Below, in pieces: positions 1 through 64,000 of a stretch of 64,000 bases of DNA; positions within the stretch are counted from its first letter, which is position 1; each line of letters opens with the position of its first letter. The translations under genes and the position numbers were made by a program. This DNA is from Nibribacter koreensis (GTDB lineage Bacteria; Bacteroidota; Bacteroidia; Cytophagales; Hymenobacteraceae). Below the pieces are notes generated by a model. The model had not been told where the DNA came from, made no database searches, and saw nothing but the letters and a program-made list of their open reading frames with translations. The DNA lies in assembly GCF_039541795.1 (NCBI RefSeq), contig NZ_BAABGX010000002.1, positions 7,808 through 71,807 of the forward strand, in the 5' to 3' direction.

Positions 1-82
1 AGAAAACAGCCTAAAAACGAACCTTACAAACCAGTACCTTTGCATCTCAGTAAACCTAGCAACCACCCAACGCTCTTCCCCC

Positions 83-1117
83 ATGGCCAAACGCAAAGCC
101 TCTGCCCCAGAACACTTACCCTCGGTGACGGGTTTGCGCACCAGCGGCGGCACGGCCAAGCAACAAGAGTTCAACCAGTACGTGGCCAGAATCAACTTCT
201 TAAAAGAGCAGTTGGCCAGTCAGCGGGCGGCCTTGTCGCAGGCCAGGGTGCGGGTGCAGAAAGAAGTACAGCCGCTCATTACGCAACTGGTTGAGAAACG
301 CCGCGCCTTCGTGCATCTCCTGGATCGGGCCTATCATCTGGAGTTCTTCCAGAAGCAGGAGAAAGAAAAAATAGCCTTCCTGATCCAGAAACTGGCCTAT
401 GACCTGATTGACACCTACGGCGCCGAGGATCTGAAAGACCTGTATGCGCAGTATGCCCCCAACACATTCGCCCCAGACCCGCAGGAAGAACAAGTACCAG
501 AGATCCCAGAAGAAGAACCTGCGCCCGACATAGAAGATTATGAGGCCTGGGAGGCCCAACAGCAACAGCACCGCGAAGCCCAGCAAAAAGCCCGTCAGAA
601 AGCCAAGAAGCAGAAAGAAAAGGCCTCTGAGCTAAAGCTGGAGCTGAGTTCGCTCACCAAGGCCAGCCGTAAGATCTATACCACGCTGGTCAAACTCCTC
701 CACCCCGACAAAGAACTGGACCCCGAGGCCAGAATCTGGAAGGAAGAGGCCATGAAGCGCATCACCATTGCCTATAACCAGGACGACTTTTTTGAGTTGC
801 TCAGGCTGCAGATGGAATTCCTGCACCTGGAGGAAGAACACCTGGACCAGGTACCCGAAGACCAGCTCACCTACTACCTGAAACTGCTCACCGACCAGAT
901 CCAGGACCTGGAGCGTGAGTTACAGCATTTCCAGACGGGAACGCAGGCCAATTTCTTTCAGCGGTTTGCTGGCACAGAGCGGCAGATGGACCTCAAATTC
1001 AGGAAGGTGAAGAAAGAGTTAAAGGACGAGTTAAGCCAACTGGACCTGGAGCTGAGAGTTTTACAAGAACCCCTGCAACTGCGCGAATTCTTAAAACAAA
1101 TGCGTAACTTCCAGTAG
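83..1117 (+). CDS. J-domain-like coiled-coil protein (DnaJ-domain family, hypothetical)
   Basis: 344-aa ORF. It contains the motif 'IYTTLVKLLHPDKELDPEARIWKEEAMKRITIAYNQDD' with the HPD tripeptide typical of J-domains. The protein is rich in E/K/Q coiled-coil sequence. Confidence 0.5.
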   Translation: MAKRKASAPEHLPSVTGLRTSGGTAKQQEFNQYVARINFLKEQLASQRAALSQARVRVQKEVQPLITQLVEKRRAFVHLLDRAYHLEFFQKQEKEKIAFLIQKLAYDLIDTYGAEDLKDLYAQYAPNTFAPDPQEEQVPEIPEEEPAPDIEDYEAWEAQQQQHREAQQKARQKAKKQKEKASELKLELSSLTKASRKIYTTLVKLLHPDKELDPEARIWKEEAMKRITIAYNQDDFFELLRLQMEFLHLEEEHLDQVPEDQLTYYLKLLTDQIQDLERELQHFQTGTQANFFQRFAGTERQMDLKFRKVKKELKDELSQLDLELRVLQEPLQLREFLKQMRNFQ

Positions 1118-1285
1118 GCGAACACCTTCTGTTTTCGGTTTAGTACCATGCGCTGAATGGCAAGTAAGAACATGTAGAAACCTCGCAAAAATAAGAGGGT
1201 AGTTCTGCCCGCTGTCCTCAACTTCTATAACCGCGCCTGCGTATATTATTACATATCTATATGTAACCTTATAAATAGAGAAGCC

Positions 1286-1477
1286 ATGCACGAACATGAA
1301 TATAGAGCCCGCGGTAACTGGAACGAAATCAAGGGCAAAATGAAGCAAGCGTACGGGGACTTGTCTGATGACGATCTAACTTATGACGAAGGTCAGGAAG
1401 ACGAATGGATCGGGAAACTACAGCAGAAGATAGGCAAGGGAAAACACGAAGTTAAATCCTGGATTGATTCTCTGTAA
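1286..1477 (+). CDS. CsbD-family general stress protein
   Basis: 63 aa. The sequence 'RGNWNEIKGKMKQAYGDLSDDDLTY...GKLQQKIGKGKHEV' matches the CsbD signature (GNW..KGK.K...G.LTDDDL). Confidence 0.75.
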   Translation: MHEHEYRARGNWNEIKGKMKQAYGDLSDDDLTYDEGQEDEWIGKLQQKIGKGKHEVKSWIDSL

Positions 1478-1626
1478 GACAATTCCTCTGGCAGATCCCA
1501 AGGCTTGGCCTGTCCGGTAGAGCGGGGATTTCTTCTGGGTCTGTTACGTTCTTATAGTGAGCGTGACTTTGGGACTCGGGATTGCGATGAAGGGCAAAAG
1601 CGTCATACCTTTTGCAGTTGTTAATT

Positions 1627-1673: not shown

Positions 1674-1696
1674 ATGGACTGTTGGGTAGCTGTTTC

Positions 1697-2533: not shown

Positions 2534-2902
2534 CTACAGGATGGTCAGCACATTCTGGGGCGGACGGCCAATCACGGCTTTGTCTCCGTTCACCACAATG
2601 GGGCGCTCCAGTAAGATGGGGTTTTCTACCAGTACTTGAATCCATTCGTCCTGCGTGAGGTGTTTGCCGGCGTACTGCTCTTTGTAAAGCATCTCTCCTT
2701 TCCTGATGATGTCTTCGGGGGCTAGTTGCAGTTTGGCCAATACGTCTTTTAACTCTTGCGCCGTGGGCGGATTAGTCAGGTAAGACACTACTTCAACGTC
2801 TTGTCCCGCGTTCTGGAGCAAGTCCAACGTCTCGCGGCTTTTACTGCATCTGTTGTTGTGGTAAATGGTGACCATGGCGGGATGGGTTTGGATGAAGGTC
2901 AA
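2534..2902 (-). CDS. ArsC/Spx-family protein (arsenate reductase-like, YffB type)
   Basis: 122 aa. The N-terminal 'IYHNNRCSKSRETLDLL' is the glutaredoxin-type ArsC-family active-site motif. Confidence 0.75.
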   Translation of the reverse strand: MTFIQTHPAMVTIYHNNRCSKSRETLDLLQNAGQDVEVVSYLTNPPTAQELKDVLAKLQLAPEDIIRKGEMLYKEQYAGKHLTQDEWIQVLVENPILLERPIVVNGDKAVIGRPPQNVLTIL

Positions 2903-2925
2903 AGATAAGGATTGTGTTGGATTCT

Positions 2926-2963
2926 CGTTTTTGGCGTGTTTTCTGGGAAACAGGCGGAAAACG
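2926..2963. repeat. 38-bp intergenic palindromic element (degenerate copy)
   Basis: cgtttttggcgtgttttctgggaaacaggcggaaaacg. It matches the family consensus but the two arms are imperfectly complementary. Confidence 0.7.
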
Positions 2964-2989
2964 CCGTTTTGATAGATGGCTGATTGTCA

Positions 2990-3745
2990 ATTGCTGATTG
3001 TTAAAGCATTCCCATCAGGACCGCCGTTGTTGGTGTTCTCACCAACTACCCGAACTGCTTCTCCAGTTGCCATTACTCTCTGGAAAAGACTTGGTGCACT
3101 TGCTTTGGCTGTTCCCTCGGTAATACCGTTTGTTCCGGTGCGAACTCACAGCTTTGTTGCATGGTCTCCGCTAAGCGCTCACGGCCGCGGGGCCTCGTCC
3201 TGGCCCTTCGCACTGCTGTTGTACTCTGGGCCTTTGGCCCCGCCTTTCAGGCGACGAAACAACAGAGGCGCTCAGGACCAAGACTGGTTCTGGTTCCAAT
3301 GCTGCTTAAGCCTGTTGGTTGGAGGTAAAGTCCGTCCCTGTCGCTGCAGAGTCATTCGTGCTGGCGCACGGCTGTAACTATCTGCTGTCCCGTGGGCATG
3401 GTTCAAGTCTTGGACTTGGACCCATGATGCAGGCAGTTTTCAACTGCCGTTGGCCTTCTGCCTAGTGATGCACATTGCTACTTTACCACGCATTGCGTCC
3501 CCCTCCGGAGGGGGTAGGGGGAGGACAAGTACTCCTTCAGACTCAGGACTCAGAACTCAGGACTAAACAAGTATCTTCTGCGCCAAGGACGGCTCCAACC
3601 GCAGACTACCCCCTTGAGGGTTGCCCAAACGGGAGTTTGAGGCACCGAGCGTAGCTCTAAGGGGGGTGTTTACACCAGCAGATAAAACTGACAGAAAGAG
3701 GCAATGGGCCCAAGACAAGGCAGTGCCGTTGTCTCTACAAAAAAG
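2990..3745 (+). repeat. Composite ~750-bp non-coding repeat, copy A
   Basis: About 90% identical to the reverse complement of 8690-9420. Its core also recurs at 13650-13990 and 50900-51430. ORF frames are not conserved between copies. Confidence 0.8.
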
Positions 3746-3894
3746 GCTCCCCTCCTGTTTTAGGAGAAGTTGGAGGTGGTAAAATCTCGATGTTGCATGC
3801 CAAAGACAAGGCAGCGCTTGGTCTCTACTTACTCAGCAATGCCTACCCCCTCATCCTAACCTTCTCCCTCAGGGAGAAGGGACTTGGGTCATTG

Positions 3895-3932
3895 CGTTTT
3901 TGGCCCGTTTTTCAGAAAATAAGCCAAAAACG
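3895..3932. repeat. 38-bp intergenic palindromic element (degenerate)
   Basis: gcgtttttggcccgtttttcagaaaataagccaaaaacg. Confidence 0.7.
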
Positions 3933-3996
3933 TAATAGTAGGCTGTTCATAAGATCCATAACCCAGTACTCAAAACTCAAGACTCAGGACTCAAAA

Positions 3997-5712: not shown

Positions 5713-5752
5713 CCGTTTTCGGGCTGAATTCTGGAAAACTGGCCGAAAACGC
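5713..5752. repeat. 38-bp intergenic palindromic element (degenerate)
   Basis: ccgttttcgggctgaattctggaaaactggccgaaaacgc. It lies between the convergent 3' ends of the M1 peptidase and the restriction-modification gene. Confidence 0.7.
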
Positions 5753-5767: not shown

Positions 5768-8527
5768 TTAGGCTTCTGGAACCACGGCGGCCTTTCTGGT
5801 TTTCTTGGGTTTCTCTTTGGCAAACAGACCGGCGGTGTACTGGGCATACAACTCAAACAGGAACTCCATGCGCTTGGCCTCGCTCACAAACGCCTGCGGA
5901 CGGTAACACAAATCTACGGCCTTGTCCAGGTCTTGGTGCGCCTTGACCAGTTTGGGCGGCATGGTGAGCGGGTCATACAAGTCTGCCAATGAACTGCCGG
6001 TAAACTCTGCCCGTACGTCCAGCACCTTCTGCGCGGCCACTTCTACGGCTTTGACCTGCTTCTCCGAAGGATTTTCTGGCCAAGGGAAGTTGTTGTAGAC
6101 GATGTCATTTGAATAACGGAAGCGACTTTCTAATCTTCCACAAACATTTTTTACCCAAGCCATATGCATTTTGGATGATAATATTCCAAAATGAAAAAAT
6201 GAATCAGTTTTAATAAAAGAGCAAAGATTGCTTGGAATCGTTTCTTTGTTTATAAATCCGATTGGAATATATCTTCGATTTTCAGAAGAAACTAAAGGGA
6301 TAATTATAGCATGCTCTGGATTATGCTTATCCCGAAAGGTAGTAGGAAAATTGGCCAAATTACGAGCCTGTGAATCAGGACTTTTTTCTCTTAGCTCTTT
6401 GACTTTTTTTACCCGGTCTAGAACATAAGGTAAATTCTTTAATTTAATTGGGTCTACATCAACTAGCCACAAGCACCATCTCGACTTACCATTTATAAAT
6501 TCTTCAGAACCTATAAATCTTCTAAAGTAATTTTCAGATAATGGCTCCTTTTGGATAAAATCTTCCTTTTCCTCATCATTAAAAATTAGATTTCCTCCAT
6601 CTATTGCTTTATTTCCTGCTTGCATTGGAAACACATTGCAAATTGGCTTCCCTCGTTTTGAGATTATAGTATCTTTCCCTTCGGTTAAGTAGGGGGTAAT
6701 ATTCATGGCTACATATTCATGAGGCTCTGAGTTGTAACTTTCATATTCATAAATAAACTTCTCATTCACATCGAAGTTGGCAAAACCAATAATCACCACA
6801 TGAACCGCGGCATTTCCTTTTGCTTCGTTCTTCCAGTTGAAGGTGCGGTGCGCGAAATGAATTTTAATCTTGTACCGATTAAATAACTCGTTCCAGAGAA
6901 TACCCACTTGCTCGCCTTGGGCAATAGAATTGGTAGACACAAAAGCAGTTTTAATCTTGGTGTCTTGCATGTACTGCGCGGCTTTTAAATACCAGGCGGC
7001 TACATAGTCTAAAACGCCAGCACCGTTCACGCCCGCAAAAACTTTCTCCATATCAGCTTTCTGCCCAGCGTTTTGGTTTGATTTGCCAATAAACGGCGGG
7101 TTGCCCAGAATGTAGGTGAGTTGGTTTTTGGGGATGACGGTTTCCCAGTCTAGTTGCAGGGCGTTTCCGTGGGTGATGTTGGCAGATTTCTTGAGCGGTA
7201 GGCGCGCAAAATACTGCCCGAACTCCTGACTGATGGCCATGTTCATCTGGTGGTCAATGAGCCACATGGCCACCTCGGCAATGCGCGCCGGAAACTCTTC
7301 GTACTCAATGCCATAGACCATGTCCACGTCCAGCCAGATAATTTCGCGCACATCCAGAATCATCTGCCCAGACTTGTTCATGGCCCGTAAAATCTCAATC
7401 TCCAGCAAACGGAGTTCGCGGTAGGTGATGATGAGGAAGTTGCCGCACCCGCAGGCCGGGTCCAGGAACTTGAGCGTGCTCAGCTTCTTATGGAATTCGG
7501 GGAGGCGGTTCTTATTGGTCTTTACGCTTTCAAACTCGCGCCAGAGCTCATCCAGAAACAGCGGCTTTATGAGCTTGAGGATGTTCTTCTCTGAAGTGTA
7601 GTGCGCGCCCAGGTTTCTACGCTCCTTGGGGTTCATGACGCTCTGGAACAGACTACCAAAAATTGCCGGCGAAATCTTGCTCCAGTCCAGGGCACAGCAG
7701 TTTAGCAGTTGCGTGCGCATTTTGCTGTCAAAGGCGGCCGGCGGCAAAGGCTCTTCAAACAGCTTTCCGTTCACGTAGGGGAACTGGTTCAGGTGCTCGT
7801 CTATGTTCTTGAGGCGCTTGTCTACGGGCGTGTTTAAGATGTAGAACAGCTGACTTAAATGCGCGGCCAGGTCAGAGCCGTCCTCACTGGTTTTCTGCTC
7901 AATGTAATCCTGGAAAAGGCGCTTGTCAAAGATGCTGGTGTCTTCAGAGAAGAGGCAGAAGAGAATGCGCACCAGGTACACCTCCAGCACGTGGCCCTCA
8001 TAGCCAATCTCCTGCAGGCGGTCATGCAGCTTGCCCATGCGTTCGGCGGCCAGAATGTTGACGGGGTCCTCAGACTTATAATGCTTGGTCTGGTAGCCCA
8101 GCAAAAACCCGAACAGCTTTACGTTCTTATACAGGTCCTGCAACAGAAACTCCTGCTGAGTGCCGTCCTCCAGATCATACAGCCTGAAGCGCTCAAAGTC
8201 ACTCACCAGAATGCACTTGGGCAGGTCATATTCCTTGAGTCCGGCAAAATAGTCTTTGGCCTGCGTGTAAGCCTTGTCCAGGTCCTTGCCCTTAGATTTC
8301 ATCTCTACCAGCAGCACGCCCTTCCAGAGCAGATCAATGAACCCGTCCCGTTCGCCCAGCTTCTTGACCTTGTGCTCAAACGTAGAAACGCGCTTACTGC
8401 TTATGCCAAACACGTTGAAGAACTCCACCAGAAAGGGCTTGGCGTCTGCCTCTTCACGGGCGGTGTCTTGCCATTCTTTGGAGAACCTGATGGCGCGGTC
8501 CTTTATCTCATTCCAGCTTAAAGCCAT
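5768..8527 (-). CDS. MmeI-family Type IIL (IIG) restriction-modification enzyme: fused endonuclease, N6-adenine methyltransferase and target-recognition domain
   Basis: 919 aa. N-terminus MALSWNEIKDRAIRFSKEWQ... The PD-(D/E)XK-like motif D-X9-E-X-K is present ('DLLWKGVLLVEMK'). Gamma-class methyltransferase motifs are 'FLDPACGCGNFL' (motif I) and 'ILGNPPFIGK' (motif IV). The long C-terminal region is consistent with a target-recognition domain. Architecture and length match MmeI. Confidence 0.85.
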   Translation of the reverse strand: MALSWNEIKDRAIRFSKEWQDTAREEADAKPFLVEFFNVFGISSKRVSTFEHKVKKLGERDGFIDLLWKGVLLVEMKSKGKDLDKAYTQAKDYFAGLKEYDLPKCILVSDFERFRLYDLEDGTQQEFLLQDLYKNVKLFGFLLGYQTKHYKSEDPVNILAAERMGKLHDRLQEIGYEGHVLEVYLVRILFCLFSEDTSIFDKRLFQDYIEQKTSEDGSDLAAHLSQLFYILNTPVDKRLKNIDEHLNQFPYVNGKLFEEPLPPAAFDSKMRTQLLNCCALDWSKISPAIFGSLFQSVMNPKERRNLGAHYTSEKNILKLIKPLFLDELWREFESVKTNKNRLPEFHKKLSTLKFLDPACGCGNFLIITYRELRLLEIEILRAMNKSGQMILDVREIIWLDVDMVYGIEYEEFPARIAEVAMWLIDHQMNMAISQEFGQYFARLPLKKSANITHGNALQLDWETVIPKNQLTYILGNPPFIGKSNQNAGQKADMEKVFAGVNGAGVLDYVAAWYLKAAQYMQDTKIKTAFVSTNSIAQGEQVGILWNELFNRYKIKIHFAHRTFNWKNEAKGNAAVHVVIIGFANFDVNEKFIYEYESYNSEPHEYVAMNITPYLTEGKDTIISKRGKPICNVFPMQAGNKAIDGGNLIFNDEEKEDFIQKEPLSENYFRRFIGSEEFINGKSRWCLWLVDVDPIKLKNLPYVLDRVKKVKELREKSPDSQARNLANFPTTFRDKHNPEHAIIIPLVSSENRRYIPIGFINKETIPSNLCSFIKTDSFFHFGILSSKMHMAWVKNVCGRLESRFRYSNDIVYNNFPWPENPSEKQVKAVEVAAQKVLDVRAEFTGSSLADLYDPLTMPPKLVKAHQDLDKAVDLCYRPQAFVSEAKRMEFLFELYAQYTAGLFAKEKPKKTRKAAVVPEA

Positions 8528-8599: not shown

Positions 8600-8637
8600 C
8601 GTTTTTGGCCTGTTTTCTGGATTTCAGGCTGAAAACG
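8600..8637. repeat. 38-bp intergenic palindromic element
   Basis: cgtttttggcctgttttctggatttcaggctgaaaacg. Confidence 0.7.
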
Positions 8638-8689
8638 GGGGGTATAGTTAAGAGTTAAGAGTTATGAGTTAAGAGTTGGATGATGGTAG

Positions 8690-9420
8690 AGACCAGGCAC
8701 TGCCTTGTCTTGGGCGCATTGCCTTCTTCTGCTAGTTTTATCTGCTGGTGTAAACACCCCCCTTAGAGCTACGCTCGGTGCCTCAAACTTCCGTTTGGGC
8801 AACCCTCAAGGGGGAAGTCTGCGGTTATGAAAGGCTCATGGCGCAGACGCAACTTGTTTAGTCCTGAGTCATGAGTCATGAGTCTGAAGGCGCTCCTGTC
8901 CTCCCCCTACCCCCTCCGAAGGGGGACGGAATGCGTGTTAAAGTAGCAATGCCCGGGCAGTTGCAGACTGCGCTCGTCATGGATCCAAGTCAAAGACTTG
9001 AACCATGGCTACGGGAAAGGAGATAGTTACAGCCGTGCGCAGCACGCGTGACTCTGCAGCGACAGAGACCGCCATTATCTTCCATCAGCCAATCAACCAT
9101 CAAGCCCTTACAGGATTGGGACCAAAACCAGTCTTGGCTCTGAGCGCCTCTGTTGTTTCGTCGCCTGAAAGGCGGGGCCAAAGGCCCAGAGTACAACAGC
9201 AGTGCGAAGGGCCAGGACGAGGCCCCGCGGCCTTGAGCGCTTAGCAGACATAATGCAACAAGACTGGTAGTACGCACCGGAAAGAGCGGTCTTACTCAGG
9301 GAACTGCCAAATGCGTGCACCAAGGCATTGGCAAAAGTTATAATAGCTAGAGAAGCAGTTTGGGTCGTTGGTGAGAACACCAACAACGGCGTAAGTTGGT
9401 CCTATGCAACAACAACAACA
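8690..9420 (-). repeat. Composite ~750-bp non-coding repeat, copy B (inverted)
   Basis: Reverse complement of copy A (2990-3745) at about 90% identity. This includes the G/C-rich mini-palindromes at its distal end. Confidence 0.8.
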
Positions 9421-9437
9421 ACAACAACAACAACAAC
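9407..9437. repeat. (CAA)10 trinucleotide microsatellite
   Basis: caacaacaacaacaacaacaacaacaacaac. It produces a spurious poly-Cys ORF on the minus strand. Confidence 0.9.
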
Positions 9438-9813
9438 GGCGACAGACGGTAGCATAGACCATGCATACGCAAGGTGAGGCACATGCCTCAGGGGATTGGA
9501 AATCCCCGACAGAGTAGTTCGGGATTAGAAATCCCGAACAGCGTAGATCTCGAACAGCATAGCAGCGTAGCAGCAGAGACCAACCACGGCGGCGCAGCAG
9601 AGGCAAGTAGTATAGCAACTGGAGAGGCAATCTTAATCGTTGGTGAGGGCGCCAACCAAGGCAGGCTAGAATTGAGAACAGAGAAGAAGCAGACCCACCA
9701 ACTGGGATTCAGGCAGAGAGATAGTCAACCTAAATCGGAAGCAACAGAACTAATTTGCTTGCGGACCCAAGCGGACGCTGGCGCCATGTCAAACGCCTCA
9801 GGCAAGGCTTCCT

Positions 9814-9852
9814 CGCTTTTAGCCTGATTCCCAGAAAACAAGCTAAAAACGC
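9814..9852. repeat. 38-bp intergenic palindromic element (inverted-loop orientation)
   Basis: cgcttttagcctgattcccagaaaacaagctaaaaacgc. Confidence 0.7.
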
Positions 9853-13588: not shown

Positions 13589-13649
13589 TTTGGTTTTTTT
13601 GTTAGGAATTTCTGAGGTGGAGGGCAAGATTATTTTTAGCTGTTGTTGG

Positions 13650-14200
13650 TGTTCTCACCAACGACCAAGATTGCCTCTCTAACTGCTGTAGTGCATTTGT
13701 GCACTTCCGTTGGCTAATCCCTAGGTAATACCTTGTGCTCCGGTGCGTACTATCTTTCTTGTTGCATTTTGTCCGCTAAGCGCTCACGGCCGCGGGGCCT
13801 CGTCTTGGCCCTTCGCACTGCTGTTGTACTCTGGGCCTTTGGCCCCGCCTTTCAGGCGACGAAACAACAGAGGCGCTCAGAACCAAGACTGGTTTCGGTC
13901 CCTTTCTGCTGAGACTAGATGATAGATTCAGGTTTTTGCATGTAAGTTCAGCTGCTGTCGCTGCAGAGTCACTCGTGCTGCGCACGGTTTGCTTTATCTT
14001 GGTTCACGAGAGCGGCCGACTGCCGGTTGTAGCGTCGCTCCGCGGAACGACGTGGTCCAACGCAGCATTGGCCGCGCTATCCCGGTTGGCACTGTTCTCT
14101 GAAACAGAAGATTCATTCATTCCCAGAAAGAGGTTTCTATTCTGCCAGAGGCGTTCCCGTTACATGGGGGCACGTCGTTCCGCGGAACGACGTTACGTTA
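13650..14200 (+). repeat. Composite repeat, copy C (partial, diverged 3' half)
   Basis: The core 'ccgctaagcgctcacggccgcggggcctcgtcttggccc...ggcgacgaaacaacagaggcgctcag' is shared with copies A, B and D. The tail carries two 20-bp palindromes, cgtcg(c/t)tccgcggaacgacg, at 14031-14054 and 14174-14193. Confidence 0.65.
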
Positions 14201-14208
14201 ACAGGTGT

Positions 14209-14246
14209 CGTTTTTAGCTCCATTCCCGGAAATCAGCCCGAAAATG
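14209..14246. repeat. 38-bp intergenic palindromic element (degenerate)
   Basis: cgtttttagctccattcccggaaatcagcccgaaaatg. Confidence 0.6.
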
Positions 14247-15848: not shown

Positions 15849-15888
15849 CCGTTTTTAGTCTCTTTTGGCCAAAACATGCTAAAAACGC
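15849..15888. repeat. Palindromic element, variant with cttttgg/ccaaaag core
   Basis: ccgtttttagtctcttttggccaaaacatgctaaaaacgc. Confidence 0.6.
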
Positions 15889-16274: not shown

Positions 16275-16328
16275 CCCATAATCGTTTTTGGCCTCTTTTG
16301 ATTAAAAGAGGCCAAAAACGATTATGGG
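16275..16328. repeat. Palindromic element, extended near-perfect 54-bp palindrome
   Basis: cccataatcgtttttggcctcttttgattaaaagaggccaaaaacgattatggg. Confidence 0.8.
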
Positions 16329-16415: not shown

Positions 16416-17918
16416 TCACCTTAACTCATTGCTCAGGCGCCAATCATTGTAATTCCAGGACTGCCACTCTTTTTGCGCTTCTCCCCTCAAATACTCCAGC
16501 TCCCATTCCGCCAAAGATTTTTTTTGATTGTCAGTGAAGGCGTGCCTGGATAAGGCAATATCCTCTTTCAAGAGAGAGAGGTTAGAATTAGACAAAGTGA
16601 ATAGATATGCAAGGTCTGGCGACTTGGCATAGGTCAGGTTGAATCTAGTAAGCACTCTGTCCCAGTTCACGGTAGAGAAGACCACCAGAAGTACGTACAC
16701 TGCCCAGCCATTCATTCTAAACAGATACCAGTTGGTCTTAACCTTGGACACTTTTATGTAACTAAAGATCAATCCTATTCCAGTTAAGATGAGGTAGGTG
16801 TACACCCCAATGCGTTTATAAGTCAGACCAGTACCTGTTATGTAAATGCTATTCTTGGTGAGCGTAAGGAGTACCAACACCATGTTTAGTCCCAGCCACA
16901 CGTAGGCTAACTTTTTTAAAGATTGGTTCTTGCTGTAGAAGTTCAGGTTTTCTCTGAATAAATATAAAAGAATGGCAATGGCTAAAAGGATAGTGAAGAT
17001 GAGAGTATATACGCCTTGATGTAAATACTCTGAATAGGGTATGCCCTCAGGAAGGTCACCTATGAAGAGATAATACGCGTCGGACAGTATAAATACAAAA
17101 AGGAGTCCATTCAGCAGGGCCAGTAGCAGCACGCCCGTTTTCAATTCATTCTTCAATGCCATGGTATTAAAAACCCTTTGAGCATATTTTTTGACCCGGC
17201 AAAGATGATTAGGTGCCAACTCATCCACCTTAGCCAATTTTGTTAGGATCAAGGGCCTGAAAAAACAAACTAACAACCACGCTCCAAACAAAGTAAACCA
17301 CACCCATGGCCAGGAAATAAAGTCAAAGTTTATAAAACTTAGTACATGCTCAAATCCCATGCTGGAGTTCTTGTAAAGCCACAGGAAAAGAAAGAATATC
17401 ACCAAAGGAAGCCCAACCACGGAAATCCGATGTTTACTGGTTGGAACAAACGACAAAGTGGCAAGCTGTTGCTCTTGGGTAGAATCCTTAGAAACCATCA
17501 ATGCTTTAACAGGTGCCGCTATCAAGGACCAGATAGCATATAGGGCCGCATAAAAGATGGAAGCAGAAGGCGCGGTGCTAAACACGGCTAAAAGTGCAAG
17601 GGAAATAACATTAGCCAAAATAGACAAGCCAGAATTTACTACAACAACGCTGAAGGCAGAGATAAGGCAGGCAAAAGCAGTGATCAGCCAATTTCTGTTA
17701 AGCATTTCCCTCCTTTCCTTCTGGAAAGTGAGTAAGGCAATCAAAAGCACTGTAAACAGCAGGTAATTAACTCCCGCAGTCTGGCTATAGAATAGATAAC
17801 TGTAGGCAATGGTGGCAACGGGGAGGTTCCAATTTTTCTTTTTCATATAGGTGAGAATAGTAAGGTGCACGACACTATTATATTGCATAGTACTTTGTGT
17901 TACAAAGTTAATTTTCAT
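16416..17918 (-). CDS. Polytopic membrane protein (DUF4153/DUF4173-like), function unknown
   Basis: At least 10 predicted TM helices and a C-terminal soluble region. The true start may be MKKKNW at 17843, because the first ATG lies inside an operator-like palindrome. Confidence 0.5.
   Translation of the reverse strand: MKINFVTQSTMQYNSVVHLTILTYMKKKNWNLPVATIAYSYLFYSQTAGVNYLLFTVLLIALLTFQKERREMLNRNWLITAFACLISAFSVVVVNSGLSILANVISLALLAVFSTAPSASIFYAALYAIWSLIAAPVKALMVSKDSTQEQQLATLSFVPTSKHRISVVGLPLVIFFLFLWLYKNSSMGFEHVLSFINFDFISWPWVWFTLFGAWLLVCFFRPLILTKLAKVDELAPNHLCRVKKYAQRVFNTMALKNELKTGVLLLALLNGLLFVFILSDAYYLFIGDLPEGIPYSEYLHQGVYTLIFTILLAIAILLYLFRENLNFYSKNQSLKKLAYVWLGLNMVLVLLTLTKNSIYITGTGLTYKRIGVYTYLILTGIGLIFSYIKVSKVKTNWYLFRMNGWAVYVLLVVFSTVNWDRVLTRFNLTYAKSPDLAYLFTLSNSNLSLLKEDIALSRHAFTDNQKKSLAEWELEYLRGEAQKEWQSWNYNDWRLSNELR
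17892..17908. promoter_or_regulatory. Operator-like palindrome ACTTTGT-gtt-ACAAAGT (site 1)
   Basis: Inverted-repeat arms are 6 or 7 bp, depending on whether the 5-nt or 3-nt spacer reading is used. It is duplicated 71 bp away in the divergent promoter region between the membrane protein and S9 peptidase genes. Confidence 0.4.
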
Positions 17919-17962
17919 TAAAAAAGGCCATAGTTGACCTTATCTTCTATCACTTTACATAG

Positions 17963-17979
17963 TACTTTGCGTTACAAAG
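17963..17979. promoter_or_regulatory. Operator-like palindrome ACTTTG-cgtta-CAAAGT (site 2)
   Basis: Second copy of the motif, embedded in the repeated 30-mer catagtactttgYgttacaaagttaat. Confidence 0.4.
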
Positions 17980-20432: not shown

Positions 20433-20501
20433 TGATTAATGACTAGTGATGAATGATTAATAAGTAGAGTTAGCAAGGCCGTTCCCATGGGAGCGGCTTT
20501 G

Positions 20502-20540
20502 CTGTTTTTGGCCTATATTCTGAAAAACAGGCCAAAAACG
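20502..20540. repeat. 38-bp intergenic palindromic element
   Basis: ctgtttttggcctatattctgaaaaacaggccaaaaacg. Confidence 0.7.
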
Positions 20541-20945
20541 CAAGAGCCCGATCCCTTCTCCCTGAGGGAGAAGGTTAGGATGAGGGGGTTGACGGTAATA
20601 ATGTAGAGACCAGACACGGCCTTGTCTCCCACGCATTGTCTTTATCTGCTTTCTTCTACTCTTAATGCGTTAATCATTCCGGGCCTTCATAGGGGGACGA
20701 TATGCGTGATTTAATTGTAGAGACAAGGCACTGCCTTGTCTCACGCGCATTGCTTTCTGCTGCTGACTTTACCATCCCATCTCCTCCTAAATAAGGAGAG
20801 ATGCTTTTTCATCTTCTGGTGTACCCCCCCTTCGCCCCCCTCAAGGGGAGAATCACCGGCTTGAGGCGTTCTTGGTATAAATACTCTCAGGTTTTCTAGA
20901 CGCTAAGAGGTCTCTTGAGTAATCGCGGTAGTAAAGGAATACATA

Positions 20946-20985
20946 GTGTTTTTGGCTTATTTTCTGGAAAACAGCCTAAAAACGG
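20946..20985. repeat. 38-bp intergenic palindromic element
   Basis: gtgtttttggcttattttctggaaaacagcctaaaaacgg. Confidence 0.7.
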
Positions 20986-21025
20986 CAAGGCCTGAATCTG
21001 GTAGATTCAGGCCTTGCCGTTTTTG
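20985..21025. terminator. Bidirectional hairpin terminator
   Basis: A-run, then ggcaaggcctgaatct-ggtag-attcaggccttgcc, then T-run. It lies immediately 3' of the desaturase gene. Confidence 0.7.
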
Positions 21026-22267: not shown

Positions 22268-22306
22268 CCGTTTTTAGCCTATTTCTCTTAAAACAGGCCA
22301 AAAACG
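22268..22306. repeat. 38-bp intergenic palindromic element
   Basis: ccgtttttagcctatttctcttaaaacaggccaaaaacg. Confidence 0.7.
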
Positions 22307-22449: not shown

Positions 22450-22489
22450 CCGTTTTAGGGCTGTTTTCTGGAAAACGGCCCTAAAACGG
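22450..22489. repeat. 38-bp intergenic palindromic element with compensatory arm changes
   Basis: ccgttttagggctgttttctggaaaacggccctaaaacgg. Both arms carry complementary substitutions (GGG/CCC). Confidence 0.75.
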
Positions 22490-28640: not shown

Positions 28641-28679
28641 CCGTTTTTGGCTTGTTTCTGAGAAATCAGGCTAAAAACG
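28641..28679. repeat. 38-bp intergenic palindromic element
   Basis: ccgtttttggcttgtttctgagaaatcaggctaaaaacg. Confidence 0.7.
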
Positions 28680-30807: not shown

Positions 30808-30845
30808 CGCTTTTAGCCTCTTTTCCTGAAAATAAGCCAAAAACG
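30808..30845. repeat. 38-bp intergenic palindromic element
   Basis: cgcttttagcctcttttcctgaaaataagccaaaaacg. Confidence 0.7.
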
Positions 30846-34039: not shown

Positions 34040-34077
34040 CGTTTTTGGGCTGTTTTCTGGAAAACAGCCCAAAAACG
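34040..34077. repeat. 38-bp intergenic palindromic element, perfect
   Basis: cgtttttgggctgttttctggaaaacagcccaaaaacg. Confidence 0.8.
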
Positions 34078-36591: not shown

Positions 36592-36630
36592 CCGTTTTTG
36601 GCCTGTTTCCTGGAAAAGAGGCCAAAAACG
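36592..36630. repeat. 38-bp intergenic palindromic element
   Basis: ccgtttttggcctgtttcctggaaaagaggccaaaaacg. Confidence 0.7.
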
Positions 36631-37768: not shown

Positions 37769-37809
37769 CGCGTTTTTGGGCTGTTTCCTGGAAAACAGGT
37801 CAAAAACAG
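37769..37809. repeat. 38-bp intergenic palindromic element
   Basis: cgcgtttttgggctgtttcctggaaaacaggtcaaaaacag. Confidence 0.7.
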
Positions 37810-37875
37810 AAAACCCTTCCGGTTTAAGGGAAGGGCTCTGGTTCATAGTTTTATTTTGGATAGGAACAGGATGCG

Positions 37876-38181
37876 TTACGCTCTCTTGTAAGAGCTGGGG
37901 AGCACATGGTACATGCCAAGTTTTACCGGACCATTCTTAAGCTCAGCAATGGCGGCTTTGGTAATATAGTAACTGGTAAAACTAGCCATGTTGCAACTGG
38001 TCAGGTACCCATGGCACTCCAATACTTTGCAACAGGCTATTACCCGCTCCAGGGGTACGCCAGACATGACACTGATGGTGTCTGGTGACAAGGGTAAATG
38101 AACCGGTGACGGATCTCCCTTCACTAACCTGTATATAGCTTTCAGCACGATATCTTCTTCTCTCATACGGGGGAGGCTCAA
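37876..38181 (-). CDS. Hypothetical protein (possible winged-helix fold)
   Basis: 101-aa ORF. Weak evidence. Confidence 0.3.
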   Translation of the reverse strand: MSLPRMREEDIVLKAIYRLVKGDPSPVHLPLSPDTISVMSGVPLERVIACCKVLECHGYLTSCNMASFTSYYITKAAIAELKNGPVKLGMYHVLPSSYKRA

Positions 38182-38345
38182 CTTATATTTGCCTAGTCTA
38201 AAACGAAACAGAAATCAGGATGTTGCTTAAAAATAGTATTTATACGGATAATTTAAATTCAAAAAACCCTATTTAATGCGTTTCAGGCCCGTTTACGTGT
38301 TTCTCACAAGCCTGACTTTCTTTAAAAATTCATAAAACTAATGGT

Positions 38346-38385
38346 TCGTTTTTGCCCTGATTTCCAGAAAACGGGCCAAAAACGA
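38346..38385. repeat. 38-bp intergenic palindromic element (inverted-loop orientation)
   Basis: tcgtttttgccctgatttccagaaaacgggccaaaaacga. Confidence 0.7.
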
Positions 38386-39782: not shown

Positions 39783-39822
39783 TGGTTTTTGGCCTGTTTT
39801 CCGGAAAACAGGCCAAAAATGG
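39783..39822. repeat. 38-bp intergenic palindromic element
   Basis: tggtttttggcctgttttccggaaaacaggccaaaaatgg. Confidence 0.7.
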
Positions 39823-40935: not shown

Positions 40936-41154
40936 TTAACCGCCTGCCCCTGTAGGACCAAATCACGGCCCGGGCCTCCGTATTAATCCGTATTCTTGTT
41001 TGGAACGACCTCTTTTTAGTGGAGTGTGAGGGGTAATTTGTACCTTGTAGGATTCAAAAACACAGGCTTGGTGTGTGGTTTAAGACAGGTCCTCTCCTGC
41101 TTTTCTGACGCCCCGGCGCAAGACCCATGCCTGCCTGCTACGTACACCAATTCA

Positions 41155-47100: not shown

Positions 47101-47276
47101 TACGGGTAGAGGACAATGGCAAAGGCATGACTACCCAGCAAATAAAGGATAGCAACGCAAAAGGCATGGGCTTGAAAACACTCAAGAGCCGGGTTCATCT
47201 GCTGCAAGGCCATTTAACCATTGACTCTTCGGGCACAGAGGGCACCACGGTCACCATTGAGATCCCCACTAAATAA
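44187..47276 (+). CDS. Multi-PAS sensor histidine kinase, HisKA_3 (NarL-partner) type
   Basis: 1029 aa. At least four PAS-like segments. HisKA_3 H-box 'ERKRIAEALHNSLAQLLYAAKL'. HATPase_c region 'LLNNIMKHAQATE...DNGKGM...GMGLKTLKSR'. Confidence 0.8.
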   Translation: MSKERKTPMSMTQNFSLLRQEAEKLQKPVSEEDVQNMSPHEVRQLIQELQIHQVELEMQNHQMHLATQELEAATRKYQDLYHHAPFGYVTLDEHGIIEEVNAKGNQLLEATRDRLVARRFSQFIHPDSLDAYYGFFRNVLLSDKPQTIELQLLAGNTRTFYAQVEGLLLRRPNDTDQCRLAFVDVTERKEAHQELFNKETLLSAVINNSLNAIQVLKAVRNAQGQLIDFEWVLLNRTAEVFLDYTQQQLGKKRLSEVLPGLMAEPVFSRLVEVVEREQPTTFAAHLPWQKQDRWINCVAVKLEDGLVLTSEDVTQQRIANERLQESQLLVKKMAEAMPDFLYVEDLQLGRNVYNNRNFLHFLGYTDQDITGHPRQLLDTLYHQEDAHLLFGRHNRYKEVPDGQFLEYMVRIKDKQGDWRSIHFRETVFKRGANGIPIQLVGTAQDLTEKLRAEQKLRQMHKTISAILESLPIIIWRIDAKGCILESMGSGLQRLGYQDHELEGKFITDVNPSIVPNIASVLAGNSDIFLGESEVNGQKVYKQNYFVYDPETKDGIGFCLDVTEQKTAEAEVLHRNMVLDQLLQHLPLVLAVLDLQGNYQEIRGAGLRAVGIEDNALKGKSLYEVFPHLKANIQDILDGQVKTFTASFTHQGKEVYFQNFGFLDKEKQLGIAFGIDITNVHETQEKLVMEKEFSENLLETHINGIVAFDKDLNVTAWNKAMEEITGYPKAKVLGKSAQSFLAKGKQSGLKQNLKRVLKGSLVTMRHLPFLPQDKSFEVNLAPLFGPNKEVAGVLGVVWDVTAQKAKQKAETQFELSQQKAVMEAVLATQNEERKRIAEALHNSLAQLLYAAKLNLEELQTEVSDGSTFLKPLSRVSGFLEDAIKETRTLAHELIPRALQDLGLKSALKDLATRLTSRSLSIQCIVTGFDAPTDYALETHIFRFVQELLNNIMKHAQATEALVQVVDQGRKVRIRVEDNGKGMTTQQIKDSNAKGMGLKTLKSRVHLLQGHLTIDSSGTEGTTVTIEIPTK

Positions 47277-47280
47277 GACC

Positions 47281-47328
47281 GCCTTCGTTTTTGGCTTGTT
47301 TTAGGGAAAACAGGCCAAAAACGAAGGC
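47281..47328. repeat. Palindromic element, extended 48-bp perfect-arm copy
   Basis: gccttcgtttttggcttgttttagggaaaacaggccaaaaacgaaggc. Confidence 0.8.
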
Positions 47329-49022: not shown

Positions 49023-49088
49023 AAAACCTCCCTTGCAAGCAGAAGCCAGCGCCTAAAGACGCTGGCTTCTGCTTGCAAGGGAGGTTTT
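49023..49088. terminator. Bidirectional terminator with unusually long (29-bp) perfect stem
   Basis: aaaacctcccttgcaagcagaagccagcg-cctaaaga-cgctggcttctgcttgcaagggaggtttt. Confidence 0.8.
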
Positions 49089-50727: not shown

Positions 50728-50771
50728 ATGCGTTTTTGGCCTGTTTTCCAGAAAATAGGCCAAAAACGCAT
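50728..50771. repeat. Palindromic element, extended 44-bp copy (inverted-loop orientation)
   Basis: atgcgtttttggcctgttttccagaaaataggccaaaaacgcat. Confidence 0.8.
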
Positions 50772-50899
50772 TTTCAATTGTCTATTGGTAAGGTGGCTTG
50801 TTGGTTTTTAGTTTGCTTTTTGTGGTTGATGGTTTGGTCATCCACAAACAAGGTTGTCTTTCCAATTGAGACGTCTCTTATTGTTGGTATTCTCGCCAA

Positions 50900-51430
50900 T
50901 GCCTAAGACTGCCGCTCCAGCTGCAAGTACCCTTGCCACTGCTTTGGTGCACTTCCCTGAGCTGTTCTCTTGGCAATACCGCCTTTACCGGTGCGCACTA
51001 CCTTTCTTGTTGCATAGCCTCCGCTAAGCGCTCAAGGCCGCGGGGCCCCGTCTTGGCCCTTCGCACTGCTGTTGTACTCTGGGCCTTTGGCCCCGCCTTT
51101 CAGGCGACGAAACAACAGAGGCGCTCAGGACCAAGACTGGTTCTGGTCCCAATGCTGCTCAGACTTGTTGGTTGGTTCTGGTGTTTGCAGGCAACGACGG
51201 GTACTGTCGCAACAGAGTCATTCGTGCTGGCGCACGGCTGTAGCCATCCGCTGTCCCTTGCGCGTGGTTCAAGTCTTGGACTTGGACCCATGATGCAGGC
51301 AGTTTTCAACTGCCGTTGGCCTTCTGCCTAGTGATGCACATTGCTACTTTACCACGCATTGCGTCCCCCTCCGGAGGGGGTAGGGGGAGGACAGGGGCGC
51401 CTTCAGACTCAAGGCTCAGGACTCATGACT
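50900..51430 (+). repeat. Composite ~750-bp non-coding repeat, copy D (core plus G/C mini-palindrome tail)
   Basis: Shares the core and the tail 'cttctgcctagtgatgcacattgctactttaccacgcattgcgtccccctccggagggggtagggggagg' with copy A. Confidence 0.8.
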
Positions 51431-51603
51431 AACGAGTAGCGTACGGCAGGGCCTGCGAGCGTCTGCGCCAGGAAACACGCTATACACCCTTACTACTGCA
51501 CGGGGTAGGTGGGTCTGGGTAATGGGTAAAATCTTATCTCCGGAGACATTAGGTTTTACGCAGAGCGACGCTACGAATCATGGAGAGACAACAAATACTG
51601 CAT

Positions 51604-51644
51604 CTCGTTTTTGCCTTGTTTTCTAGGAAATAGCCAAAAAACGG
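51604..51644. repeat. 38-bp intergenic palindromic element (degenerate)
   Basis: ctcgtttttgccttgttttctaggaaatagccaaaaaacgg. Confidence 0.6.
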
Positions 51645-55160: not shown

Positions 55161-55173
55161 GCATAGATGACAT

Positions 55174-55218
55174 AAAAAGACAAGGCGACCCATACCTATG
55201 GGTCGCCTTGTCTTTTTA
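55174..55218. terminator. Bidirectional hairpin terminator
   Basis: aaaagacaaggcgaccc-atacctat-gggtcgccttgtcttttt. Confidence 0.8.
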
Positions 55219-55261
55219 TGTGGGAGGGTAATAGAAACCCTACTTTACATATTTATTAAAA

Positions 55262-56868: not shown

Positions 56869-56907
56869 CCGTTTTTGGGTTATTTTCTGGAAAACATGCC
56901 AAAAACG
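56869..56907. repeat. 38-bp intergenic palindromic element
   Basis: ccgtttttgggttattttctggaaaacatgccaaaaacg. Confidence 0.7.
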
Positions 56908-58047: not shown

Positions 58048-58088
58048 CCGGTTTTTGACCTGTTTTCTGGAAAACAGGCCAAAAACAG
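58048..58088. repeat. 38-bp intergenic palindromic element
   Basis: ccggtttttgacctgttttctggaaaacaggccaaaaacag. Confidence 0.7.
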
Positions 58089-58494: not shown

Positions 58495-58536
58495 CCCGTT
58501 TTTGGCCTGTTTTCTGGAAAACAGGCCAAAAACGGG
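58495..58536. repeat. 38-bp intergenic palindromic element, perfect consensus copy
   Basis: cccgtttttggcctgttttctggaaaacaggccaaaaacggg. Confidence 0.85.
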
Positions 58537-63100: not shown

Positions 63101-64000
63101 GGTGATGAGAAGGTCTTCAAAGATGCTACAGGTAATACCAAAAACAGCGTAACCTATACAGCCGCTAACTTAGGGCAGACCACCTGGTTTAGACGCAAGG
63201 TGAAACTGGGAACGTGCGAGTCTTACTCCAACACGGTACAAGTAGTTGTAACACCGGCCCTAGCCAACAATGCTTTGCCAGCCGCGCTTAAATTCTGCGA
63301 AGGCACCACGCCTCCGCAGCTTGCAGGAACAGGAGACGTGACGGGTGGTGATCCAATAGAAGGCATCCAGTACCGCTGGGAAATGAAGACCTCCCTGGCA
63401 GATACCTTTGGCCCTGCGCCCGGAGACAACACCAATGCCACCTATCAACCCACAGACATCACGCAACCTAATACTTGGTTTAGAAGAGTAGCCGTATCTG
63501 GAAGCTGTCAATTAGAGAGCAATACGCTGGTGTTGCAAATGTCACCAAAACCAGCCTTGCCGGTGCTAGCCAAGACCAGTTTGGAAGTATGCGTAGGCGG
63601 TGGCGCTACCTTAAATGCCATCCCTAAAGCAGGCGTGACCTTCCAGTGGTTTGACCAGGCGGGCACTTTGCTAAAAACTGGCAACAGCCTGCCTATTGCA
63701 GCTGCTGATTTGACTGAAGCAAGACCTTACATCTATTATGTAGAAAGCAAGACGGCTGATGGTTGTTTATCTTCTGACCGCGTGGCTGTTACAGTGAAAA
63801 TATTACCATTGCTAAGCGCGTCTTTGGCCACTGGTGAGCAGTCTGTTTGCATGGGTTCTGCCCCAACCAAACCACTAACAGCCACTGCCCCAACCGGCGG
63901 CAACGGACAGTACCATTACCAGTGGCAGTCTACCACAGACCTGAGCAAGCCTTTCAAAAACACATCCTATGAAGATACGTTGGCTACCTACCTGCCAGGT
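60113..64000 (+). CDS. Giant secreted cell-surface adhesin (partial, runs off the window end): PKD domain, Ig-like domains and SprB-type repeats. This is a likely T9SS or gliding-associated cargo.
   Basis: Open frame of 1296 or more codons with no stop from ATG 60113 to the window end. It is absent from the ORF track because it has no stop. Signal peptide MACIKKYFNLLPFFLLLSFASFAQT. PKD-like motif 'IEWGDGSQNTYGAS'. Repeated modules of about 90 aa, 'C.G....L.A.......W......TG..F.TPVL...TTYYVEA', alternate with SprB-like repeats 'C.G...G.I....GG...P.Y.WQ.S.DG..F.DI'. Confidence 0.8.
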   Translation, partial: MACIKKYFNLLPFFLLLSFASFAQTCPDLPNAALEDVNKENFIKCSPVIGPFEFNLSVKNISTTKATNQSYLIEWGDGSQNTYGASFSTATHLYKTRGKFDMKVTVTSLSGCTSSKTYAVYNGTNPGFGLQNIGNTSSCAPATYTFNITGTSNNSPTTAYKIWFDDGSDTLYFNQDNIPASIEHVFESSSSKKENGFTISGVAIDCYNRKTPATISGFVVSGNPKSAFEFKSATRCVDSIIKLKDTSTGGFNPYNPNNSGGYNRKWKIEPATGWSFVNDTDEFSEEPEVIFTASGQYNITLTITPVGNSAVCPGDEHSELITIEDPTKAAFTLRPDQLNSCAPNTFAAQNLSTGTNVAYTWSVTPATGFVYAQGNSTSAHPSFTFQEAGTYRITLTAKNTCGTTTYFEDVTVLNKPTVSLPANAQYCGPQTLVFGPSNAAHTPVYNAQGSRITRYQWSLDSQDGAQFLEPGMASEAYPAIVFTKAGVYQVRVQAWNDCGESVATNQTVTIYALPAAPVVAPVLVCKGTSATLEASGEVTTYKWYASATATSPLYTGVTFTTPVLQTTTTYYVEALSENDCASSSRTPVTVTVQDQPVAPVINSNPAICANSRAVLETAVPNSRIEWFSSATSEAPFFVGNILDTLLTSTTTFYAGSITEAGDCRSLTRTKVTVTVHPNIYSNTITTLSRGICEGSETGIIVASAPKGGFGSPTFQWQMSIDGQTFTDISGETKQNLPSRALTNTTWFRRTVTLGACTENTEAIKIAVVPPITQNVIIAPADFICAGTVPPALEAAPLLGGDGSEPTFIWESSASENGTYTLAKGAGTLTSFQPDALPNSRWFHRKVIINGCESISAPVEIKVNPLSLPPTVSATRSTICSGSTTELKATAPSGPYSWYDAATEGNLLHTGNTFVTPVLTNNTGSSITVTYYVQSEATGGCTVSRTAVKITVESEITNNTILEVARVCAGESPSIRGLVPAGGTGSPVYTWQYSLDAGDEKVFKDATGNTKNSVTYTAANLGQTTWFRRKVKLGTCESYSNTVQVVVTPALANNALPAALKFCEGTTPPQLAGTGDVTGGDPIEGIQYRWEMKTSLADTFGPAPGDNTNATYQPTDITQPNTWFRRVAVSGSCQLESNTLVLQMSPKPALPVLAKTSLEVCVGGGATLNAIPKAGVTFQWFDQAGTLLKTGNSLPIAAADLTEARPYIYYVESKTADGCLSSDRVAVTVKILPLLSASLATGEQSVCMGSAPTKPLTATAPTGGNGQYHYQWQSTTDLSKPFKNTSYEDTLATYLPG

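Follow-up and report, generated by a model that had tools for sequence, protein, structure and literature searches.

A 64-kb stretch of the genome of the soil bacterium Nibribacter koreensis (hereafter the window) carries a dense family of palindromic repeats with a 38-bp unit, here named PAL. PAL is probably a lineage-specific family of the Nibribacter/Rufibacter clade (Hymenobacteraceae) that resembles the repetitive extragenic palindromic (REP) elements, is kept as hairpins at the 3′ ends of genes, and plays there the role that REP elements play in Escherichia coli. Repeats of this general kind, short palindromes dispersed at the ends of genes, are well known. PAL itself appears to be undescribed and the family new, as the sources searched hold no earlier description of it; a literature search found no description of repeats in Rufibacter, Nibribacter or Hymenobacteraceae, and Rfam returned no match at gathering score across the whole window. 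A first-pass annotation of this DNA had proposed a REP-like family of dispersed palindromes, a proposal upheld here, with PAL confined to one clade and enriched at gene 3′ ends.

Inverted-repeat and half-site scans of the window defined the PAL unit as an 18-nt left arm (CGTTTTTGGCCTGTTTTC), a 2-nt centre and an 18-nt right arm (GAAAACAGGCCAAAAACG), with the arm spacing exactly 2 nt in every copy. Full copies in the window number 26, and a further one, truncated by the window start, retains its right arm (1..19, GAAAACAGCCTAAAAACG, with two mismatches against that arm of the unit); the density is about one per 2.4 kb. This is far beyond chance: the 11-mer core GGCCTGTTTTC has 24 matches at no more than one mismatch against 1.98 expected, and the degenerate 38-mer has 7 matches against 0 expected. 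The density described in the first-pass annotation is therefore real, but its consensus, which assumed a 3-nt loop, matches nothing when three or fewer mismatches are allowed, and its description of the elements as perfect palindromes applies to 2 of the 26 copies (34040 and 58497), in which Watson–Crick pairing is complete (18/18); the others have 10–17 of 18 pairs. A profile search of the window scored the 26 copies at 27–51 bits, with the range below them empty down to noise, implying that no old, decayed copies remain in this genome.

The consensus is predicted to fold into a hairpin with a 17-bp stem and a 4-nt loop (−24 kcal/mol, z = −7.3), in which a T5 tract lies on the 5′ side and an A5 tract on the 3′ side of a GC core stem. 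The sequence is strongly conserved among the window copies, with a mean column identity of 87% and positions T4–T6 and A33–A36 invariant. Both centre orientations occur, as had been claimed, with TG in 12 copies, CA in 4 and other dinucleotides in 10, and the excess of TG over CA is not significant (P = 0.077). At window 58497–58534 the centre is TG, and in the orthologue from Rufibacter sp. DG15C (locus L014, 17891–17928) it is CA, with the flanks aligned; given such flips between orthologues, the orientation of a PAL copy carries no information. Coordinates of intergenic copies are given without strand. Complementarity of the arms extends outward by at least 3 nt in 5 of 25 copies against 0.4 expected, and the flank extensions reported in the first-pass annotation are present at 16283 (13 nt), 47286 (6 nt) and 50731 (3 nt).

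Genes were placed using open reading frames (ORFs), a codon-usage score and Pfam/NCBIfam matches, revealing that 25 of the 26 full copies are intergenic. The distance from the 3′ end of the nearest upstream transcription unit to PAL has a median of 28 nt and is 30 nt or less in 12 of 23 cases. Among gaps of at least 45 bp (n = 38), PAL occupies 6 of 8 convergent, 15 of 23 tandem and 1 of 7 divergent gaps (Fisher P = 0.028), corresponding to 21 of 31 convergent and tandem gaps and 22 of 38 overall. The earlier statement that the elements fill nearly every intergenic gap was thus an overstatement, and their described intergenic location is correct for 25 copies and wrong for that at 25466–25503, which lies within a gene.

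Several copies lie directly behind stop codons, including those at 34040..34077 (18/18 pairs; 4 nt past the PspA stop, −), 9814..9851 (6 nt past a histidine kinase stop, −), 5714..5751 (16 nt past the stop of an MmeI-family gene, −), 36593..36630 (20 nt past an HTH_3 gene stop, +) and 22451..22488 (24 nt past the DinB stop). Copies at greater distances are found at 3895..3932 (64 nt past an M1 peptidase stop, −), 30808..30845 (69 nt past the stop of a 723-aa gene, −) and 15850..15887 (214 nt past a CAT-family gene stop), and a further copy occupies the DinB/desaturase gap at 22269..22306. Copies in convergent gaps include 16283..16320, where the flanks lengthen the perfectly complementary arms to 30 nt and a T-run follows; 39784..39821, which is 1 nt past a CheB-like stop (−) and 73 nt past the NhaA stop (+); and 47286..47323, located 9 and 28 nt from two stops. 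The genes at 41026–44136 and 44187–47276 encode CheB/CheR/PAS and PAS/HisKA_3 sensor proteins, as judged by orthology to DG15C. The MmeI-family (type IIL) restriction-modification gene (5768–8527, −) is complete, and such a gene also lies beside PAL in XAAS-G3-1 (locus L010, 22713–24992). The copy at 38347..38384 is the sole one whose position is explained neither by a 3′ end nor by the larger repeat described below; the NhaA start lies 117 nt downstream of it, and it is preceded by a 538-bp AT-rich stretch (37809–38346) without a convincing gene.

The two convergent gaps that are free of PAL bear unique long hairpins in the order A-run/stem/T-run (1628–1673 and 55170–55221), as does a PAL-free tandem gap after a response-regulator gene (49023–49088). 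These are probably ordinary bidirectional terminators. Together with a hairpin at 20978–21024, they have perfect or near-perfect arms of 21–32 nt and stand at PAL-free or PAL-adjacent gene ends. Like PAL, bidirectional intrinsic terminators are dyad-symmetric hairpins between gene ends, and the two appear interchangeable at orthologous sites; unlike them, PAL has the order T-run/stem/A-run, with an A-tract rather than a U-tract after the core stem, and mostly lacks a downstream U-tract. Since a T-run follows three copies only, PAL alone is not a classical intrinsic (Rho-independent) terminator, although terminators were among the possible roles named in the first-pass annotation.

At several sites the GTTTTT of the element doubles as the T-tract of an abutting unique hairpin. 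At 20503..20540 (70 nt past an S9 peptidase stop) it directly follows the unique hairpin 20472–20503; at 20947..20984 (64 nt past a fatty-acid desaturase stop, −) AAAAACG is common to PAL and the unique hairpin 20978–21024; at 37771..37808 unique hairpins adjoin both sides; and the same arrangement is seen at 39784. A general rule that every PAL comes after a unique terminator hairpin was rejected, as abutting hairpins occur on 6 of 50 flanks against 5–10% in controls.

Orthologous positions were compared with two relatives, XAAS-G3-1 (six gaps) and the closer DG15C (six positions). In XAAS-G3-1, element columns are 75% identical against 44% for the remainder of the gap. Orthologue pairs share 9 derived states against a mean of 5.4 for mismatched pairs (1.5% of derangements reach 9), and 8 compensatory double changes were found against 0.89 expected with randomised partners (0 of 5000 permutations reach 8). 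In DG15C, all six PAL positions are kept at equal or nearly equal distances from the stop codons, with element identity of 78%, compared with 53% for the remaining gap and 74–81% for coding DNA, and 3 compensatory changes against 0.55 expected (P = 0.007). PAL at orthologous sites is about as conserved as coding DNA.

The perfect copy at 58497..58534, which equals the consensus and lies 27 nt past a stop (−), differs from its DG15C orthologue by a compensatory C10:G29 to G:C change together with the flipped centre. The copy at 58050..58087 lies 28 nt past a stop (−), with its DG15C orthologue at equal distance; that at 56870..56907 also has an orthologue in DG15C, and that at 28642..28679 has one in XAAS-G3-1 (L010 9866). 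The right arm of PAL 20947 has C29/T31 in common with its R. tibetensis orthologue. The matched-arm variant TTTTAGGG...CCCTAAAA, singled out in the first-pass annotation, is present at 22451 and is an old variant, common to Rufibacter orthologues: at the orthologous site it is the same in R. tibetensis, and XAAS-G3-1 has TTTTGGGG/CCCTAAAA.

Within the window, covariation is modest. Double-change cells number 11, where shuffling gives 6.0 ± 2.2 and 9 of 500 shuffles attain that count; 87.8% of pair cells are paired when G–U is counted, against 85.9% in shuffles. The predicted covariation of the arms is hence weakly visible in the window and clear between orthologues. The accompanying claim, that the hairpin and not the sequence is under selection, stands in part: the arms do covary, but the sequence itself is conserved, and template switching offers an alternative source of matched changes. 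Template switching in quasipalindromes is an established mechanism, and such correction can, without selection, produce both symmetric changes and outward extension of a palindrome. From the sequence comparisons, the two arms would change together through selection on pairing, through template-switch correction between the arms, or through both.

R. tibetensis provides a contrast, with only weak, diverged matches to PAL. Its orthologous sites hold either a diverged PAL core within a perfect 28–35 bp hairpin that has lineage-specific outer arms, or an ordinary terminator. The hairpins lie at L015 5607–5668 (−45 kcal/mol), 17905–17975 (−54 kcal/mol) and 18333–18385 (−46 kcal/mol), with a further one at L009 18573–18622, the whole set spanning −35 to −54 kcal/mol; an ordinary terminator (AAAAAGCCCTGCACTT-CTC-AAGTGCAGGGCTTTTTT) directly follows the CDF gene. 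The presence of PAL-derived hairpins or terminators at these sites indicates that the hairpin niche at 3′ ends is conserved although the PAL sequence is not. Symmetry that stays perfect far out into flanks that are not conserved suggests that one arm is copied onto the other by mutation and that palindromes grow in this way; such a process may act beside selection or partly in its place.

The single genic copy (25466–25503, −) is a PAL-like 38-mer lying in frame in a DUF3686/DUF7902/AAA ‘DNA repair ATPase’ gene (23569–28554, −), where it encodes CFWAVFMKEGQKQ. Fourteen orthologues align across the 38-mer without an indel, so that 13 codons are replaced with no change in length, and the hypothesis that the genic copy is an insertion was rejected on this ground. 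All Rufibacter and Nibribacter orthologues share the segment, with 29–31 of 38 nt matching the PAL consensus. At this site Pontibacter has LFWKVFASDKKRQ, which matches PAL in the FW.VF part only (about 15 of 38 nt, codons read by eye). The likeliest history is that a segment already resembling the left arm was overwritten by PAL in a conversion-like event before the Rufibacter/Nibribacter split and was then kept as protein. If so, the family predates that split, and PAL sequence can spread without insertion. The Rickettsia palindromic elements (RPEs) are likewise palindromic repeats in frame in conserved protein genes; they differ in being insertions of 100–150 bp by which the protein becomes longer.

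A 1661-aa protein encoded in the window shows 100% identity to a protein of N. koreensis; exact-protein look-ups for N. koreensis, Rufibacter sp. LB8, R. glacialis and N. ruber gave no result. When one genome per species was scanned for PAL, the matches listed were all from Rufibacter species (immobilis, ruber, hautae and XAAS-G3-1), and PAL was also present in Rufibacter sp. DG15C and on L013, a Rufibacter-like contig from a metagenome. The samples of a Pontibacter genome (25 kb) and of Botryobacter ruber (19 kb) contained no PAL, and viral contigs gave no match either. N. koreensis, XAAS-G3-1, R. ruber and R. immobilis have one and the same consensus, and that of the L013 family is shifted at two pairs (T7:A32 to G:C and C1:G38 to T:A). 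Pfam/NCBIfam searches of the approximately 47 ORFs in the window revealed no transposase or Y1 HUH domain, bearing out the earlier remark that the window encodes no REP-associated tyrosine transposase (RAYT). In about 190 kb of related loci, tblastn for a RAYT or Y1 transposase gave noise only (a weak test, with E. coli RayT and IS608 TnpA queries).

A larger non-coding repeat, BIG, is tied to PAL. Its copies are approximately 0.6–0.75 kb long and 78–85% identical overall, with a GC-rich core of about 170 nt (roughly window 3165–3340) that is identical in all four window copies. BIG_A (3017..3741, +) lies between PAL 2926..2963 and PAL 3895, BIG_B (8684..9411, −) between PAL 9814 and PAL 8600..8637, and BIG_C (50843..51588, +) between PAL 50731..50768 and PAL 51606..51643; the shorter BIG_D (13619..14201, +) is followed by PAL 14209..14246, the most degenerate copy (10/18 Watson–Crick pairs). 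A fifth, partial copy is located on L013 (12642–12929, −). In 5 of 5 copies a PAL follows the 3′ end of BIG, at a spacing of 8–154 nt (154 nt for BIG_A, 47 nt for BIG_B, 18 nt for BIG_C and 8 nt for BIG_D). The 5′ leaders of BIG_A and BIG_C reach right to a PAL, namely 2926 (14/18 Watson–Crick pairs, with an ArsC-family gene start 24 nt downstream) and 50731. The strict statement that PALs are the termini of BIG was rejected, given the variable 3′ spacing and the lack of a 5′ PAL at BIG_D.

The gap between the CDF transporter and EEP-family genes was compared with DG15C, in which BIG_C is absent. In DG15C the gap is 60 bp, composed of 6 nt, one PAL and 15 nt; in the window it is composed of 6 nt (from the CDF stop), PAL 50731, which aligns with the single DG15C PAL, BIG_C, PAL 51606 and 15 nt (to the EEP stop, −). 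This comparison implies that BIG and one PAL arrived either exactly at the PAL boundary or by PAL-to-PAL recombination. On the evidence of this one gap, PAL serves as an insertion or recombination point for BIG, and arrival of BIG at PALs would explain why PAL 2926, 8600 and 14209 stand before gene starts. Another element placed precisely at the edge of a palindrome, and with palindromes to both sides of it, is also seen with REP-targeting insertion sequences (IS1397, ISKpn1 and IS621-type) and with integron attC sites; unlike these, BIG has no ORF or Pfam domain, and no recombinase was identified.

BIG was rejected as a coding gene, as it has a negative codon score, frame-shifting indels between copies and no Pfam domain in six frames. 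Rfam searches of the BIG_A region (2900–3960) gave chance-level matches only, searches for tRNA and tmRNA genes found neither, nor any tRNA-like gene in BIG, and searches of plasmids and metagenome contigs gave no match apart from the partial L013 copy. RNAalifold predicted many helices, with a slightly better result for the + strand in the orientation used here, and a G:C pair of one predicted long-range helix is flipped to C:G in L013.

Further small repeats were observed around BIG. Two small hairpin families occur in BIG tails and in the 20.5–20.9 kb gap, AGAGACAAGGCA..GCCTTGTCTCT at 3802–3826, 8688–8712, 20605–20629 and 20719–20743, and CCTTCTCCCTNAGGGAGAAGG at 3860–3880 and 20554–20574; the intergenic DNA of this region is pieced together from hairpin repeats of several kinds. 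The BIG_D tail has two copies of a short palindrome built around CCGCGG (ACGTCGTTCCGCGGAACGACGT), at 14033–14052 and 14172–14193, 139 bp apart. Between PAL 9814 and BIG_B, the leader of BIG_B (about 9415–9450, −) has some nine units of (GTT)n, and part of the BIG 5′ end is duplicated in tandem (9599–9662).

Among known systems, the REP elements and bacterial interspersed mosaic elements (BIMEs) of Enterobacteria and Pseudomonas (PMC3733652, PMC6006769) resemble PAL in being extragenic palindromes of 20–40 bp in hundreds to thousands of copies, in their position at gene 3′ ends in convergent and tandem gaps with avoidance of divergent promoter gaps, in the lack of target-site duplication, in a consensus common to related species, and in serving as targets for other mobile elements. 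PAL, an imperfect 38-bp palindrome present 26+1 times in 64 kb, fits this description. No direct flank repeats of at least 3 nt were found in 25 copies, so that the target-site duplication of a miniature inverted-repeat transposable element is missing. Unlike REP elements, PAL has neither an unpaired GTAG-type head nor a short tail and is paired from first to last base, the first and last CG of the consensus pairing with each other and the flanking positions being unconserved. It occurs as single units and not as the head-to-head inverted dimers of BIMEs and REP doublets forming hairpins (REPINs), the nearest pairs starting 182–576 bp apart with unrelated DNA between them; it has T5/A5 tracts in its arms, no identified RAYT, and a host in Bacteroidota.

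CGTC-tagged REPs (dRS3, RPE-4/6), which consist of an unpaired CGTC head, an 8–9 bp stem, a 4–5 nt loop and a CCA-like tail, have been reported in Bacteroidetes (PMC3733652). They resemble PAL as small palindromic repeats of Bacteroidetes without a dedicated transposase nearby and with intragenic units; PAL differs in its paired CGTT head, paired terminal CG, 18-nt arms, 2-nt centre and absence of a tail. Untagged families of short dispersed palindromes have already been noted (PMC3733652). Lacking the defining tag and dimer features (PMC3733652), PAL is filed as REP-like in behaviour and not as a proven member of the RAYT-type or CGTC REP families.

We propose the following model for PAL. Each 38-bp unit would fold on either strand into a 17–18 bp hairpin just past the 3′ end of a transcription unit. 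Copies would have spread by copy-and-paste without target duplication, probably through a single-strand hairpin route and from a time before the species split; since then they have stayed in place and been maintained as hairpins, their arms changing together. By analogy with REP elements of E. coli, the most likely role is that of a stable 3′-end hairpin that blocks 3′-to-5′ RNA decay and helps to end or insulate transcription units, in a manner other than that of a classical U-tract terminator. In addition, PAL offers an insertion or recombination point to the ~0.7-kb BIG, as judged from the one gap compared. A bolder form, in which PAL is a near-universal, U-tract-independent 3′-end mark that is maintained by selection, replaces terminators and doubles as an attachment site where the structured, protein-free BIG integrates by palindrome-to-palindrome recombination, seems to us improbable.

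Several observations weigh against the proposed model. Within the window, 12% of pair cells are unpaired. G–U and A–C mismatches on the sense strand of the upstream gene are equally frequent (18 against 17), so that neither RNA strand stands out as the unit under selection. A downstream T-run is present at about 3 of 20 copies (16283, 50731 and 58497, gained from the flanks), and for most copies the sequence therefore gives no indication of termination activity. In R. tibetensis the sequence of the family has decayed, and the consensus is thus dispensable there. No mobilising enzyme for PAL was found in the window ORFs or, by the weak tblastn test, in the related loci. Finally, since most 3′ gaps hold a PAL, some positional orthologues could be independent insertions, although shared variants and identical spacing argue against this at several sites.

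Of the other explanations, template switching as the source of the matched arm changes and flank extensions, without selection on the hairpin, is possible, if doubtful. It would account for perfect complementarity into lineage-specific flanks (13 nt at 16283, 6 nt at 47286), for the perfect 28–35 bp stems of R. tibetensis, which go far beyond the needs of a terminator, and for the flip of the centre at 58497 (TG against CA); but it leaves unexplained the persistence of the elements at 3′ ends, their near-coding conservation and the unpaired 12% of cells, and it can operate alongside selection without replacing it. We also think it unlikely that PAL is nothing more than a selfish element of the REP/REPIN type, mobilised by a RAYT (Y1 HUH transposase) whose gene lies elsewhere in the genome, with the gene-end sites being tolerated insertions. 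A short palindrome of high copy number without target-site duplication is what such an element would look like; a single consensus in four genomes, shifted in the L013 lineage, is consistent with an enzyme and the repeat it recognises having evolved together, and decay in R. tibetensis is as expected after loss of the enzyme there. The absence of an unpaired GTAG or CGTC tag (compare PMC3733652), the occurrence of singletons rather than inverted dimers, and the lack of a Y1 transposase in the window and, in the weak tblastn test, in the ~190 kb of related loci speak against it, as do the orthologous copies being as conserved as coding DNA and the hairpins persisting in R. tibetensis.

The remaining alternatives explain the position or the conservation of PAL by a direct function. 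A dedicated bidirectional, U-tract-independent terminator module, spread because it supplies termination, would naturally sit right past stop codons and be exchanged for canonical terminators at orthologous sites in R. tibetensis, as after the CDF gene; four copies (20503, 20947, 37771 and 39784) give a T-tract to an upstream unique hairpin, and three (16283, 50731 and 58497) lie at the apex of a hairpin with a T-run after it. We nevertheless grant this explanation little probability, as the polarity is reversed, with T5 5′ and A5 3′ of the core stem, the downstream T-run is found in a small minority of copies, and abutting hairpins are not enriched over controls. Very improbable is a binding site for a DNA-binding protein (a nucleoid protein or gyrase) or a DNA-uptake signal, kept through recognition of the sequence and not of the hairpin. 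Strong sequence conservation with invariant T4–T6 and A33–A36, T and A tracts phased at ~10.5 bp as read from the consensus, a density of 1 per 2.4 kb, and the location of the sole genic copy in a ‘DNA repair ATPase’ gene are in its favour, and the inverted pairs of Neisseria DNA uptake sequences and the uptake signal sequences of Haemophilus show a similar density, with inverted pairs at gene ends. These, however, are 9–12-mers that also occur singly and inside genes, whereas PAL half-sites do not stand alone, with 23 of the 24 near-matches to the 11-mer core lying within full palindromes; compensatory evolution points to pairing, and R. tibetensis loses the sequence and keeps the hairpins. 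Nor is competence known in Hymenobacteraceae.

REP-like elements have been studied best in Proteobacteria, and the debate over whether they are parasitic or of use to the genome continues. PAL provides a clean test case, being very dense, simple in geometry, fully paired and stable in position across species whose intergenic DNA is otherwise unalignable, and the genomes that keep the PAL consensus form a natural contrast with R. tibetensis, which keeps the hairpins only. The in-frame genic copy and the PAL-flanked BIG show side effects of such repeats, namely the rewriting of coding sequence and the guiding of other insertions. PAL could reveal whether long hairpins free of a U-tract end or protect transcripts in Bacteroidota, and its significance would rise if it proved to be a U-tract-independent terminator, or if BIG proved to be a new structured mobile RNA.

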